Source: a virus. Taken from it: a stretch of 20,928 bases of DNA. The notes below the pieces were generated by a model. That model had not been told where the DNA came from. It was given only the letters and a program-made list of their open reading frames with translations, and ran no database searches. The stretch lies in the UHGV virus genome UHGV-0008299; one strand, written 5' to 3'. This document shows positions 15,311 through 20,695 of this stretch, piece after piece. The stretch's first letter is position 1, and each line of letters begins with the position of its first letter. Made by a program: the position numbers and the translations under genes.

Positions 15311-15820
15311 CTATTGAGAACGTTTGTCTTTTTGAGACTCTAATATAGCCAATACCTTATAAAGAGATTGGTTTGTTGAGTCTAATTTTTGATCAGTGTT
15401 ATCAATCCTTGACTGTAATACTGATTGGTTGTTTTGGATAGTAGCCATTATCTCTGCCTTACTGGTTTGGATGTTTCCTGTTAGCTCTTGTCGTGATGAT
15501 TCAACTTTATCATCTATAGTGCCTCGAATCGTCCATGTGGCGGCAACGATAGAACCAATGATAGCAACTGCAACCCCGTATAGCTCTAAACGTTTCACGG
15601 TATCACGACCTTCTTCTTTGTGTTGCTCTTCTTGTAGGCTAAATATTTGTGGTTCCTTTGACGGATTTCTGTCAGTTGGTCTGTAATACTCTGAATATTT
15701 AGCGTTTTCTATTGAACTCCATAACGATTTGTCAAAGTCAAGGTTTTCATGTTGGCTTTGAGCATCTCCATAAATACTAGGTGATTTATTGTGAACATGT
15801 TGGTCAAACATTATCTCCAT
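15311..15820 (-). CDS. Hypothetical single-pass membrane protein with coiled-coil C-terminus (immI cargo)
   Basis: The track ORF starts at GTG 15823; the first ATG is at 15820. One central hydrophobic helix (LYGVAVAIIGSIVAATWTI) followed by a Gln/Ser/Asp-rich heptad-like region. Overlaps the upstream zinc-ribbon ORF by about 17-20 nt. AT-rich. Confidence 0.55.
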   Translation of the reverse strand: MEIMFDQHVHNKSPSIYGDAQSQHENLDFDKSLWSSIENAKYSEYYRPTDRNPSKEPQIFSLQEEQHKEEGRDTVKRLELYGVAVAIIGSIVAATWTIRGTIDDKVESSRQELTGNIQTSKAEIMATIQNNQSVLQSRIDNTDQKLDSTNQSLYKVLAILESQKDKRSQ

Positions 15821-16151
15821 CACCCTTTACGAATTTTCCAGAAGAGATATTTTCACTAACTTTGTTTAAACTAAAAAAGTGGAAGAAACCGCAAGTGGTG
15901 CATTGCATGGCTACCATGTTAAGACTATCGTTGCTATAAGTATCTTGATTAACAGGATTATTAGGCAAGCTTTTACCTGGTATGGATGGGCCTATAACTT
16001 CAACACCATCATCTTTTTTAAGATGCTCAGGTGCTAAAAGAGTCCAGTTTGTATTGCTGCATATTGGGCATACATAAGTTTTTTTGAATGAAGTCAAGTA
16101 ATTACTAAAAGACTCAAAAGTAACTTTTAAGTATTGCTCCTTACTGCTCAT
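15804..16151 (-). CDS. Hypothetical zinc-ribbon protein (two CxxC pairs), immI cargo
   Basis: 115 aa with CPIC and CTTC motifs about 55 residues apart. Its ATG overlaps the mnt stop (TAATG on the minus strand). gagg Shine-Dalgarno 6 nt upstream. AT-rich. Confidence 0.55.
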   Translation of the reverse strand: MSSKEQYLKVTFESFSNYLTSFKKTYVCPICSNTNWTLLAPEHLKKDDGVEVIGPSIPGKSLPNNPVNQDTYSNDSLNMVAMQCTTCGFFHFFSLNKVSENISSGKFVKGDGDNV

Positions 16152-16390
16152 TATTGGCCTCGAATCTTCTTAAGTACGCTAATTGCAATATCCATTGCTT
16201 CCTTCTCTGTTTTTGTGAGATCTTGAGATGTCGATGGTATGACCTTTTCTCTGTTAATCTTAATCCATAGCTGTATTGCAGCTATGATTTCAGCATTGAT
16301 AGAGCGCCTGTTTGTTGCCGCAATGTGAGTAAGCTGCTGCTTGATTTCACTTGGCATTCTTACGTTAAATTGTGGATCGTTTCTAGCCAC
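16151..16390 (-). CDS. mnt: Mnt repressor (ribbon-helix-helix)
   Basis: N-terminus MARNDPQFNVRMPSEIKQQLTHIAATNRRSINAEI parallels P22 Mnt (MARDDPHFNFRMP...NGRSMNSEL). GTG start with GGAGAG Shine-Dalgarno 4 nt upstream. Divergent from arc. Confidence 0.85.
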   Translation of the reverse strand: MARNDPQFNVRMPSEIKQQLTHIAATNRRSINAEIIAAIQLWIKINREKVIPSTSQDLTKTEKEAMDIAISVLKKIRGQ

Positions 16391-16483
16391 GTCGCTCTCC
16401 TGTTATTTGTTGACATGCTAGAACGGTAGTAGTACGCTTTCAATAGTAGTACGGTGCTATCATTTAATGGAATGGAGTGGAAT
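16391..16483. promoter_or_regulatory. Divergent mnt/arc control region (Pant and Pmnt candidates with repeated operator-like elements)
   Basis: Plus strand: -35 TTGACA at 16410-16415 and a weak -10 TACGCT at 16433-16438. Minus strand: -35 TTGAAA (reverse complement of 16438-16443) and -10 TAGCAT (reverse complement of 16415-16420), 17-bp spacer. Direct repeat TAGTAGTACG at 16427-16436 and 16444-16453. Confidence 0.5.
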
Positions 16484-16645
16484 ATGCAAGGCGCAAGAAA
16501 AATGCCGCAGTTCAATTTGCGGTGGCCTAAAGAAGTATTGGATTTGGTACGCAAGGTGGCGGAAGAGAATGGTCGGTCTGTTAACTCTGAGATTTATCAG
16601 AGAGTAATGGACAGCTTTAAGAAGGAAGGGCGCATTGGCGCGTAA
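16484..16645 (+). CDS. arc: Arc repressor (ribbon-helix-helix)
   Basis: [53 protein letters not shown] is near-identical to P22 Arc as I recall it. The track ORF starts further upstream at 16454, but ATG 16484 with ggagtgg upstream gives the canonical Arc length. Confidence 0.88.
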
Positions 16646-16725
16646 AGTTGAAGCCCCAACTACGGGAACAGTCAGGGCTTCGGTTGTCGGTAAATTCGTG
16701 GAGAAAAACCAACATGAATAGTATA
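16646..16725 (-). ncRNA. sar: sar-like antisense RNA candidate (promoter plus transcript)
   Basis: Minus-strand -10 TATACT (reverse complement of 16720-16725) just inside ant. Transcription from about 16712 would run about 68 nt through the ant ribosome-binding site to a hairpin (GAAGCCC/GGGCTTC, 16650-16681) followed by CUUUA. P22 has a 68-69 nt sar RNA at this position. Confidence 0.4.
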
Positions 16726-17649
16726 GCAATTTTAGAAGCAGTGAACACCTCTTACGTGCCTTTCAATGGTCAGCAGATTTTAACCGCTGTGGCTGCCGGA
16801 GTGACTTATGTAGCGATGCGTCAAATTGTGGAAAACATTGGTATCGACTGGACTGGTCAATCTGTTAAGTTGCGTAAAATGAAGGACAAATTCAACTGTA
16901 GAGATATCTCTATGGTTGCTGCTGATGGCAAGTTACGTAAGCTTTTATGCATCCCGCTGAAGAAGTTAAATGGATGGCTGTTCAGCATCAACCCTGAGAA
17001 AGTTCGTGCTGACATCCGTGATAAACTGATTCAGTACCAGGAAGAATGCTTTAGCGTGCTGCATGACTACTGGACTAAAGGTCATGTAGTTAACCCACGC
17101 AAAGCTAAAAAGGCGTTGCCGGGTAAAATCACCACTGAACAGCAGGAAGCCATTAAACAACTCGTCATGAGTCGCGGTCAGTCTCTGCCAAAAGAAAAAC
17201 AGGCTAAGGCGATGATCACCATGTGGTCGTCACTGAAATCCCATTTTGGATGTTCGTACAAAGAAATCAGTGAGGAGCAGTTTACCGAAGCACTATCACT
17301 TGCAGCTCGAGTTCCACTTGAAGGTGAGTTCATTGGCAAACAAGAGAAGAAAACCAACGAGCTTTCTGCAAAAGAAGCAAACAGCCTTGTATGGTTATGG
17401 GATTATGCTAACCGCTCACAGGCATTATTCCGCGAACTGTATCCGGCATTAAAACAAATTCAATCGAACTATTCCGGCAGATGCTACGACTACGGTCATG
17501 AATTCTCGTATGTTATCGGAATGGCGAGAGACGTTTTAATCAATCACACACGCGATGTTGATATCAATGAGCCAGACGGACCAACGAATCTTTCCGCATG
17601 GATGAGACTTAAGAATAAAGAATTACCTCCTTCAGTACATAACTACTGA
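16714..17649 (+). CDS. ant: Antirepressor Ant
   Basis: The track ORF starts at TTG 16648; the first ATG is at 16714 ([21 protein letters not shown]...), with ggag at 16700-16703. Position after arc, about 310 aa, as for P22 Ant. Confidence 0.8.
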
Positions 17650-17749: not shown

Positions 17750-20695
17750 ATGACAGACATTACAGCCAATGTGATCGTATCGATGCCTTCGCAACTCTTC
17801 ACTATGGCGCGTTCTTTTAAAGCCGTAGCCAATGGTAAAATTTATATCGGTAAAATTGACACTGACCCGGTAAACCCTGAAAACCAGATTCAGGTTTATG
17901 TGGAGAACGAAGACGGCTCTCACGTTCCTGTTTCGCAACCAATCATCATTAACGCCGCTGGTTATCCTGTATATAACGGACAGATTGCCAAATTCGTAAC
18001 TGAGCAAGGCCATTCTATGGCTGTTTATGATGCGTATGGTGCACAGCAGTTCTATTTTCCTAATGTGCTGAAGTATGATCCTGATCAGCTACGGCAGCAA
18101 TTAGAAGACCCAGATGGAGCGGATAAATACCCAAAACTTCAGATAGCAAGATGGAGAGACAGTTATGATCTAAGAGGTTGGGGGGCTATTGGTGATGGTG
18201 TTCATGATGACACATCAGCTCTATCAGAATTACTTTCTGTTGCAACAGGTGGTGAAAAGATAGATGGGCGAGGGCTTACTTTTAAAGTGTCAACTCTTCC
18301 GGATGTCAGTCGATTTAAAAATGCTCGTTTTTTATTTGAGAGAATACCGGGTCAGCCTCTTTTTTATGCTTCTGAAGATTTTATCCAGGGAGAGTTGTTT
18401 AAAATTACAGATACACCGTGGTACAACGCCTGGACGCAGGATAAAACGTTTGTATATGACAATGTCATCTATGCGCCTTTTATGGCTGGAGACCGCCATG
18501 GTGTAAATAACCTCCATGTTGCATGGGTTCGCTCAGGAGATGACGGGAAGACCTGGACAACGCCGGAATGGCTTACAGATTTACATGAAAACTATCCCAC
18601 AGTTAACTATCACTGCATGAGTATGGGGGTTGTCAGAAATCGCCTTTTTGCTGTAATTGAGACGCGGACCGTGAGCGGAAATAAACTGCAGGTTGCAGAG
18701 TTGTGGGATCGCCCAATGAGTCGCAGCCTTCGCGTTTATGGTGGTATAACGAAAGCAGCAAATCAGCAAGTCGCTTATATTCGCATTACTGATCACGGAT
18801 TATTTGCTGGTGATTTTGTCAACTTCTCAAACTCTGGTGTTACAGGTGTTACCGGGAATATGACGGTGACTACTGTTATTGATAAAAATACTTTTACAGT
18901 TACGACGCAAAATACCCAGGATGTGGATCAGAATAACGAGGGTAGATACTGGAGTTTTGGTACATCATTTCACTCGTCACCATGGAGAAAAACCCGTCTT
19001 GGAACTATTCCTTCTTTTGTTGACGGAAGCACTCCTGTTACTGAGATTCACAGTTTTGCGACGATTAGCGATAACAGTTTTGCTGTTGGCTACCATAATG
19101 GTGATATTGGGCCACGCGAGCTTGGGATACTCTATTTCTCTGATGCTTTCGGTTCTCCTGGTAGCTTTGTTCGCAGACGCATACCTGCAGAATATGAGGC
19201 GAATGCATCTGAGCCATGTGTAAAATATTATGATGGCATTCTGTATCTGACGACCAGGGGAACATTAAGTACTCAACCCGGTAGTTCATTACACAGAAGC
19301 TCTGATTTAGGTGCATCATGGAATTCTCTTCGCTTCCCAAATAATGTTCATCACTCAAACCTTCCTTTTGCCAAAGTTGGCGATGAGCTGATTATTTTTG
19401 GCAGTGAGCGCGCATTTGGTGAGTGGGAAGGAGGAGAACCTGATAACCGTTATGCAGGAAATTATCCAAGAACATTTATGACCAGAGTTAACGTCAATGA
19501 GTGGAGTCTGGATAATGTAGAGTGGGTTAATGTTACTGATCAGATTTATCAGGGCGGAATAGTTAACTCTGCGGTTGGTGTTGGTTCAGTTTGTATCAAA
19601 GACAACTGGCTGTACTACATTTTCGGTGGGGAAGACTTTCTAAACCCATGGAGCATAGGGGATAACAACAGAAAATATCCTTATGTTCACGATGGTCACC
19701 CGGCTGATTTGTATTGTTTCAGGGTAAAAATTAAACAGGAAGAATTTGTTTCAAGGGATTTTGTCTACGGAGCCACTCCTAACAGAACGCTTCCTACTTT
19801 TATGTCGACGTCAGGCGTGAGGACGGTTCCTGTACCCGTTGATTTCACAGATGATGTTGCCGTCCAGTCACTGACTGTCCATGCCGGTACATCAGGACAA
19901 GTTCGCGCGGAAGTCAAACTTGAGGGTAATTACGCCATTATTGCGAAGAAAGTACCGTCTGATGATGTTACCGCTCAGAGATTAATCGTTAGCGGCGGTG
20001 AAACAACGTCTTCAGCAGATGGTGCAATGATAACGTTGCATGGTTCCGGAAGCAGTACTCCACGTCGCGCGGTATATAACGCACTCGAACATCTTTTTGA
20101 GAACGGAGATGTTAAACCTTATCTTGATAATGTAAATGCTCTTGGTGGTCCGGGAAACAGGTTCTCGACAGTTTATCTTGGCTCCAACCCTGTAGTTACC
20201 AGTGACGGAACATTAAAGACAGAGCCGGTCTCTCCTGATGAAGCATTGCTGGATGCCTGGGGTGACGTCAGGTATATCGCTTATAAATGGCTGAACGCTG
20301 TCGCTATAAAGGGGGAAGAAGGGGCGAGGATACATCATGGTGTAATCGCGCAGCAACTTCGTGATGTTCTTATTTCTCACGGACTCATGGAAGAAGAAAG
20401 CACAACATGCCGCTATGCCTTTCTTTGTTATGACGATTATCCCGCAGTATATGATGACGTCATTACTGGCCAAAGGGAAATGCCGCTGACTGATAATGAC
20501 GGGAGCATCATTGTTGATGAGGATGATAATCCAGTGATGGTAATGGAAGACATCATTGAGCGCGTTGAAATAACGCCAGCAGGATCTAGATGGGGGGTCA
20601 GACCTGATCTCTTATTCTATATCGAGGCAGCATGGCAGCGCAGAGAAATAGAAAGAATAAAAGCTAGGTTAGACTTAATAGAAGGGAAGCACTAA
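17750..20695 (+). CDS. Tailspike: P22-type head-binding domain fused to a sialidase-like (endosialidase-type) receptor domain and C-terminal intramolecular chaperone domain
   Basis: 981 aa. The first ~115 residues ([11 protein letters not shown]...VLKYDPDQ) parallel the P22 gp9 head-binding domain. Downstream there are two Asp-box motifs (SGDDGKTW at 18533-18556, SSDLGASW at 19298-19321) and a C-terminal region with an S-x4-K motif (SDGTLK, 20201-20218) and ...[20 protein letters not shown]..., resembling the self-cleaving chaperone domain of K1 endosialidases. Confidence 0.8.

Follow-up and report, generated by a model that had tools for sequence, protein, structure and literature searches.

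In the 20,928-nt virus genome UHGV-0008299 (its full length is referred to here as the window), the 93 bp between a leftward mnt-like repressor gene and the rightward arc gene (positions 16391–16483) contain two exact plus-strand copies of TAGTAGTACG, at 16427–16436 (copy 1) and 16444–16453 (copy 2). These two TAGTAGTAC(G) copies are probably neighbouring binding subsites for repressors, each from a different operator of a P22-type immI switch, present here as a specificity allele shared with the phages N7 and Emek. Judged by its sequence, the region is an uncharacterised specificity allele of the P22 immI switch, and neither a new operator grammar nor an extra factor is needed to account for the repeat.

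An earlier note on this DNA had described a divergent mnt/arc-ant control region of the P22 kind with two direct copies of a short element 17 bp apart, and both observations hold. The copies are spaced 17 bp start to start, with a gap of 7 bp, and a search of the window with one mismatch allowed found no third copy. Of 5000 dinucleotide-shuffled versions of the intergenic region, only 10 contained a non-overlapping direct repeat of at least 10 nt; we take the repeat as real and its origin by chance as unlikely. A repeat finder extended it weakly to a 17-nt period (16426–16442 vs 16443–16459, 71%). The two copies are not equivalent at their tenth base. G16436 of copy 1 is variable in relatives, being A in ATCC 43886 and T with an additional base in the prophage PK8241, which changes the copy spacing to 18 bp. 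G16453 of copy 2 is the centre of a dyad and unchanging within the N7 type.

We identify the locus as a P22-type immI module in the order mnt (leftward), arc, sar RNA, ant, because both repressors match the same Pfam family (Arc, PF03869), the Ant protein carries the two P22 antirepressor domains, and sar lies between arc and ant. The mnt-like gene, taken from the list of open reading frames (ORFs; 16151–16390, minus strand, GTG start), encodes 79 residues with an N-terminal ribbon-helix-helix (RHH) domain and the strand PQFNVR; its Pfam match has E = 4.8e-13 and the nearest solved structure is 1mnt. On the plus strand, arc (16484–16645, ATG at 16484) encodes 53 residues (E = 6.3e-31), followed on the minus strand by the sar antisense RNA (16646–16713; Rfam RF00262, full length, 89.5 bits) and, again on the plus strand, by the antirepressor gene ant (16714–17649; P22_AR_N and P22_AR_C). 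Divergent mnt and arc-ant transcription units, RHH-family repressors, both antirepressor domains, sar and an ACGGT-centred dyad at the O_mnt position are thus all present. Over this region, the window is 99.8–100% identical to the Escherichia phages N7 and HZ41, and its control region shares 92.6% identity with that of Salmonella phage Emek. N7, HZ41 and Emek are P22-like phages (Lederbergvirus).

The control region aligns collinearly with those of P22 and epsilon34, and the curated P22 record BK000583 served as the reference for the positions of P_ant, P_mnt, O_arc and O_mnt. By homology, the P_ant-equivalent promoter occupies 16410–16438 on the plus strand (-35 TTGACA, 16410–16415; 17-bp spacer; -10 TACGCT, 16433–16438). 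The P_mnt-equivalent promoter, at the P22 P_mnt position on the minus strand (16415–16443; -35 TTGAAA, 16443–16438; 17-bp spacer; -10 TAGCAT, 16420–16415), was also called by a generic promoter scan (9/12). Overlapping face-to-face promoters had been proposed in the earlier note, with about 90 bp in common; the candidates do stand at the P22 positions, but their overlap is about 34 bp, and 90 bp corresponds to the whole intergenic gap. The P22 operators O_arc and O_mnt map to 16415–16435 and 16443–16463, with centres 28 bp apart in both phages. Therefore, copy 1 falls into the right half of the O_arc-position element and copy 2 into the left half of the O_mnt-position element. With respect to the promoters, the note's placement of both copies between the hexamers applies to copy 1, which spans spacer and the first four bases of the P_ant -10, but not to copy 2, which lies downstream of that -10, around the inferred P_ant start site and directly upstream of the P_mnt -35. 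We also considered a second promoter with TACGGT of copy 2 as its -10 and dropped it, as no plausible -35 could be read from the sequence 16–18 bp upstream. The fold of the arc leader (16444–16490; -6.1 kcal/mol, z = -0.38 vs shuffles) was unremarkable, and a role of the repeat region at the RNA level is not supported.

Each of the two operator positions holds a 21-bp element, read without regard to strand, in which two 10-bp subsites flank a centre base. The O_arc-position element (16415–16435) consists of S1 (ATGCTAGAAC, 16415–16424), centre G16425 and S2 (GTAGTAGTAC, 16426–16435), and the O_mnt-position dyad element (16443–16463) of S3 (ATAGTAGTAC, 16443–16452), centre G16453 and S4 (GTGCTATCAT, 16454–16463), whose reverse complement ATGATAGCAC makes it the inverted partner of S3. 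Copy 1 thus corresponds to S2 with the first spacer base, and copy 2 to S3 with the dyad centre. Within each element the subsite centres (16419.5 and 16430.5; 16447.5 and 16458.5) are 11 bp apart, and both 21-mers fit the palindromic skeleton nTnnTAnnAC-G-GTnnTAnnAn. The AC-G-GT centre is present in both elements here, in P22 only in O_mnt. S1+S2 shares 12/21 positions with P22 O_arc, and S3+S4 shares 11/21 with P22 O_mnt, including the ACGGT centre, while the arm at the O_mnt position reads TAGTAGT vs AGGTCC in P22.

The P22 Arc and Mnt operators being symmetric, the earlier note had argued that a direct repeat would imply an altered operator grammar or binding by another factor. The anatomy of the elements does not support most of this: copy 2 has its inverted partner at 16454–16463, with which it forms a dyad 21-mer exactly at the O_mnt position (dyad score 7/10 here, 8/10 and 9/10 in the related loci L037 and L033), and copy 1 is the right subsite of a 21-mer whose dyad score of 6/10 equals that of the genuine P22 O_arc, so that operator symmetry is not lost. 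What remains of the idea is the orientation of S2, the core of which (AGTAGT) points the same way as GCTAGA, the core of S1, whereas the two TAGA cores of P22 are inverted. The subsites S1, S2 and S3 point rightward and S4 leftward, and the P22-style pair of inverted TAGA boxes was not found in the O_arc-position 21-mer, which contains a single TAGA box (16419–16422). RHH dimers are two-fold symmetric, and S2 itself is palindromic at 8/10 positions; in locus L018 the palindrome is perfect (GTAATATTAC), and in L036 the subsite is flipped the other way. In the structure 1PAR, the Arc sheet contacts six adjacent bp, AGTAGA (PMC12645479), from which the S2/S3 core differs by one base. The midpoint of AGTAGA, the T|A step, coincides with the centre of the 10-bp subsite, and a dimer would therefore keep its place on a flipped subsite. 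The RHH proteins omega, ParG and ArtA are reported to use both direct and inverted subsites (PMC2777438, PMC3413123).

Both 21-mers match the pattern TNNTANNACSGTNNTANNA without mismatch, and nothing else in the window matches it even with one mismatch; this expresses the likeness of the two sites and is not an independent test, because the pattern was derived from these same sites. For an independent scan, a weight matrix was built exclusively from 14 sites upstream of distant Mnt-like genes (loci L036–L043). Over the whole window, this matrix ranked 16443–16463 first (24.2 bits) and 16415–16435 second (15.6 bits), compared to maxima in shuffled windows with a mean of 11.8 and a highest value of 15.9 bits.

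To compare relatives, we gathered 32 IMG/VR loci with an Mnt-like protein and 80 with Arc, together with E. coli prophages and other phages; a search of genome contigs for Mnt added two distant loci only. The skeleton bases are the same in all 14 distinct N7-type control regions, which vary at subsite positions 3, 4, 7 and 8 and within the 7-bp spacer. In the more diverged loci L018 and L034, S2 and S3 are no longer the same (GTAATATTAC and ATCGTAGTAC in the former, GTGATAGTAC and ATGGTAGCAC in the latter), yet the skeleton of each 21-mer is kept. Because the subsites differ among relatives while the 21-mers persist, only one clade can be said to have the exact direct repeat, and conservation applies to the operator pair. 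The anatomy of the two elements, their positional homology to the P22 operators and their conservation are direct observations.

These comparisons also bear on the idea that a single factor, be it a host protein, another phage protein or a repressor arranged head to tail, recognizes both copies together, as a true direct repeat with 17-bp spacing. The exact identity over 10 nt, unlikely by chance, and the conservation of both copies in the N7/Emek clade would fit it. However, the 1-bp insertion in PK8241 alters the spacing, the identity of S2 and S3 is lost in L018 and L034 without loss of the skeletons, and each copy has a partner subsite of its own 11 bp away. Furthermore, 17 bp amount to about 1.6 helical turns, which would place the copies on different faces of the DNA, and no candidate factor is evident, as the neighbouring ORFs lack a match to a DNA-binding family. 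We therefore consider this explanation, which the earlier note had also raised as binding by another factor, very improbable.

The identity of S2 and S3 could also be a by-product of evolution, arising by local duplication or gene conversion between the operators without being selected itself. The 71% extension over the 17-nt period and the restriction of exact identity to one clade speak for such an origin, whereas the flanks outside the subsite are only weakly similar. It seems improbable as the explanation of the repeat and, since both subsites occupy conserved operator positions, it would be compatible with two adjacent operator subsites rather than opposed to them.

The earlier note had assumed repressors near-identical to those of P22, which is too generous for the pair: Arc shares 48 of 53 residues (91%) with P22 Arc, while the mnt-like protein has 19/40 identities with P22 Mnt in the N-terminus only, an unrelated C-terminal half and the Arc-like recognition strand PQFNVR instead of PHFNFR. 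The 13-residue DNA-reading segments of Arc and Mnt (in the latter MARNDPQFNVRMP) are identical at 8/13 positions, compared to 5/13 in the P22 pair. The N-terminal arm of Arc reads MQGARK vs MKGMSK in P22, and its S5R exchange introduces an Arg three positions ahead of the Pro, as Arg2 is in Mnt. At the DNA level, 6/12 bases of arc codons 2–5 differ from P22 but only 5/147 elsewhere in arc; divergence from P22 is also seen in the control region (61/93) and in mnt (69/120). Because divergence is confined to mnt, the control region and these codons, the variable module comprises mnt, the control region and the Arc N-terminal arm, and of arc itself, no more than the first five codons seem to belong to the specificity module. 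This fits an old result, according to which specificity is set by a short segment at the N-terminus. Arg2, His6, Asn8 and Arg10 are presumably the operator-reading residues of P22 Mnt, and P22 Arc and Mnt are reportedly operator-specific (Knight and Sauer 1989, as listed in PMC3413123). We considered whether Gln in place of His6 in Mnt explains the TAGT subsite. This idea was weakened by the PQFNLR proteins of ST64T/SE1 and of L040, which adjoin palindromes of the form AAGACCAC-S-GTGGTCTT.

The 80 IMG/VR arc loci fall into two unmixed classes: 12 combine an Arc with the MQGARK arm, an Mnt with QFNVR and TAGTAGTAC sites, and 68 combine MKGMSK, HFNFR and P22 operators. Besides these 12 of the 80 arc loci, the N7/Emek allele was found in N7, HZ41, Emek and approximately 73 of 5426 complete E. 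coli genomes. Loci in which the partner gene is missing or different are informative about the assignment of the sites. Locus L019, with an mnt 82% identical to the one studied here and without arc, ant and sar, keeps S3+S4 (ATGGTATTAC-G-GTGATACTTG) and has lost S2. Loci L036 and L037, which pair an Mnt-like protein with a non-Arc RHH partner, keep sites like S3+S4 and lack the TAGAAC box of S1. All loci with an Arc-type partner have this box, which is lost where another gene replaces arc or arc is missing. Together with positional homology, L019, L036/L037 and the distribution of the TAGAAC box support Mnt acting on S3+S4 and Arc on S1+S2. That proteins bind here at all, and which protein binds at which site, we infer from these patterns.

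In the mechanism that we propose, the two-stranded sheet of one RHH dimer would insert at the central T|A step of each 10-bp subsite, as Arc does on P22 O_arc, and the two subsites of a 21-bp operator, 11 bp apart from centre to centre around the centre base, would accept two dimers. Copy 1 would act as S2, the right half of the operator at the O_arc position, located between and over hexamers of both promoters, and copy 2 as S3, the left half of the operator at the O_mnt position, which covers the P_ant start and lies immediately upstream of the P_mnt -35. By analogy to its role in P22, Arc produced from P_ant would bind S1+S2 cooperatively and shut both promoters, and Mnt produced from P_mnt in the lysogen would bind S3+S4, blocking P_ant and keeping ant off while leaving P_mnt free. 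As Arc and Mnt carry similar DNA-reading segments in this allele, their subsites may have converged on ATRNTAGNAC with an AC-G-GT centre; the likeness of the subsites is probably due to the Arc-like DNA-reading segments in both repressors.

Several observations weigh against this assignment or parts of it. S3+S4 is closer to P22 O_arc (16/21 to its reverse complement, the outer seven bp on each side being identical) than is S1+S2 (12/21), and because of this resemblance Arc might prefer, or additionally use, the site at the O_mnt position; the two proteins might cross-bind, and even a different assignment is conceivable. With 15.6 bits in the matrix scan, S1+S2 is within the range of the shuffle maxima. 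The P_ant -10, TACGCT, is weak (3/6 consensus) and was missed by the generic promoter scan, so that this promoter is a candidate by homology only. An Mnt of the ST64T/SE1 type has the strand PQFNLR and yet a presumptive operator AAGACCAC-C-GTGGTCTT, which is P22-O_mnt-like; therefore, strand residues alone do not set the subsite. Finally, the unmixed linkage of proteins and operators could reflect adjacency on the DNA instead of functional coupling.

In a rival reading, Arc and Mnt would have nearly the same specificity and each would bind both 21-mers with different orders of preference, similar to lambda CI and Cro on OR1–OR3, the identical S2 and S3 being the physical basis of cross-regulation. 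For example, Mnt could regulate itself through S1+S2, and Arc could repress P_ant through S3+S4 without closing P_mnt. The greater similarity of the DNA-reading segments compared to P22 and the match of Arc S5R to the position of Mnt Arg2 are in line with this arrangement, as are the AC-G-GT centres and TAG cores in both elements, the 16/21 match of S3+S4 to the reversed P22 O_arc, and distant relatives with two to three sites of the same skeleton between two divergent RHH genes. Against it, only S1 keeps a full TAGA box, tracking the presence of an Arc-type gene, and S3+S4 tracks mnt where arc is absent; moreover, the P22 proteins are reportedly operator-specific. We regard it as rather unlikely that Mnt and Arc of the N7/Emek allele converged on one code, with the four subsites as a shared set read with different preference. 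Such a code would combine a Q-N-R strand and an Arg at the third residue ahead of the Pro with TAG-core subsites around an AC-G-GT centre. If true, the antirepressor switch would be a CI/Cro-like competition for common sites and not one of two private operators, and the flipped S2 would be a natural case of an Arc-type tetramer on head-to-tail subsites.

Returning to two adjacent operators, each with its own repressor, as the preferred reading, the closest known system is immI of P22 itself (Sauer et al. 1983; BK000583). The gene order mnt, arc, sar, ant, the gap of about 90 bp, the positions of the candidate hexamers with their 17-bp spacers, the two 21-bp sites with centres 28 bp apart, the 91% identical Arc and the conserved sar and ant are the same. 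In contrast, the operators here match P22 at only 12/21 (O_arc position) and 11/21 (O_mnt position), with one TAGA box, a flipped right core at the O_arc position and AC-G-GT at both sites; Mnt has Gln for His6 and another C-terminal domain, Arc has the arm MQGARK, and the P_ant -10 is weaker. The Mnt-only "ant morons" of ST64T, L and SE1 likewise have a PQFNLR Mnt homologue with an upstream palindrome at an O_mnt-like position, but this palindrome (AAGACCAC-C-GTGGTCTT) resembles P22 O_mnt and not TAGTAGTAC, and arc and ant are absent (PMC2629481, PMC8022706). P22-like phages are known to vary strongly in their ant moron region (PMC2629481, PMC8022706). The heptads of omega, the tetramer boxes of ParG and the sites of ArtA have in common with the present case that a symmetric RHH dimer occupies each short subsite, direct or inverted (PMC2777438, PMC3413123); however, they are arrays for one protein, whereas here two operators with dyad-symmetric 21-mer skeletons stand at fixed P22-like positions for two paralogous repressors.

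A further parallel concerns protein design. Hybrid repressors combining Arc and Mnt were reportedly engineered by Knight and Sauer in 1989 and by Raumann, Knight and Sauer in 1995 (both cited in PMC3413123). Here, an Mnt-type protein with Arc-like N-terminal recognition residues is found beside an arc-like operator (16/21 to the reverse complement of P22 O_arc), reportedly as in those hybrids. Unlike them, this is a natural allele, in which only the Gln of the strand (PQFN) is Arc-like, while the arm MARND and the operator centre are Mnt-like. The Mnt of this allele thus looks like a natural counterpart of the Arc/Mnt hybrids, because an Arc-like reading segment occurs next to an arc-like operator.

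Arc and Mnt are textbook models of DNA recognition by a beta-sheet, and to our knowledge the P22 allele is the only Arc/Mnt allele that has been studied; a literature search for the immI region of N7 or Emek found no paper. The N7/Emek allele would amount to a natural experiment in which a pair of paralogous repressors and their operators have shifted specificity together. It predicts that N7-type and P22-type immI regions should be heteroimmune, and it raises the questions of whether an Arc-type tetramer can use a flipped subsite and whether two repressors with almost the same reading head would discriminate between their operators.

One prophage departs from the combinations described above. 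In E. coli HNSQ2209 (NZ_CP137737.1; locus L011, 716–1210), an N7-type Mnt (PQFNVR) is combined with a P22-type control region and a P22-type Arc, an apparent mismatch of repressor and operator that is unique among the 5426 complete E. coli genomes. N7-type Mnt might in this case be able to act on P22 O_arc. The P_ant -35 of this prophage, TTGGCA, was considered as a compensation for the mismatched Mnt and rejected, since the ordinary P22-type locus L088 has it, too.

The IMG/VR contigs L036–L043 contain, in about 130 bp upstream of position 1201, two to three TAnnAC-S-GTnnTA sites between divergent pairs of RHH genes, which in L038 are both Mnt-like. This architecture looks like a widespread divergent RHH-pair switch that extends beyond the P22-like phages. 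Among the P22-type loci L061–L128, G and C interchange freely at the centre of O_mnt (CCAC-G-GTGG or CCAC-C-GTGG), consistent with a dyad axis running through an uncontacted base. In the Emek-type loci L001 (860–1081) and L008 (1207–1428), the C-terminus of Arc is different (…KRVLDSLKREGITV) and an extra ORF of 73 residues lies between arc and sar; sar is still present, with lower scores of 62–64 bits.

Both repressor genes of the window are preceded by Shine-Dalgarno sequences that can be read from the DNA: AGGAG for mnt (16397–16401, minus strand; the reverse complement of 16388–16406 is ATAACAGGAGAGCGACGTG) and GGAG for arc (16474–16477, plus strand). The GenBank record of N7 (MH717096; locus L004) starts the mnt-like gene at an internal Met (2772–2978, 207 nt) and thereby omits the entire DNA-binding beta-strand MARNDPQFNVR, which is part of the gene at 16151–16390 in the window; our analysis corrects this database annotation. 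In the same record, arc starts four codons upstream of the ATG homologous to that of P22 (3093–3266, corresponding to 16472–16645 of the window). Several Mnt homologues are labelled "partition protein ATPase" in RefSeq.

Immediately downstream of mnt, an ORF of 115 residues with two CxxC pairs (15804–16151, minus strand) overlaps it by stop and start codons, and the two are therefore probably co-transcribed. Its counterpart in L019 (1440–1841), where arc and ant are absent, also adjoins mnt and is 35% identical. The three ORFs downstream of mnt gave no significant Pfam match, and for the 115-residue ORF there was only a sub-threshold hint of a zinc finger.

Inside arc, within the codons for PQFNLR (16505–16522), the minus strand has a terminator-like hairpin, CCGCAAATTGAACTGCGG, followed by a T-rich run. 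It is kept in P22 because it is coding sequence, and it could halt leftward antisense transcription short of the control region. The tailspike gene farther downstream (17750–20695, plus strand) encodes a chimera of a P22 head-binding domain, a complete endosialidase (N-terminal extension, beta-propeller, beta-barrel and tail-spike domains) and a C-terminal S74 chaperone, which suggests a phage specific for polysialic-acid (K1-type) capsules, like CUS-3.

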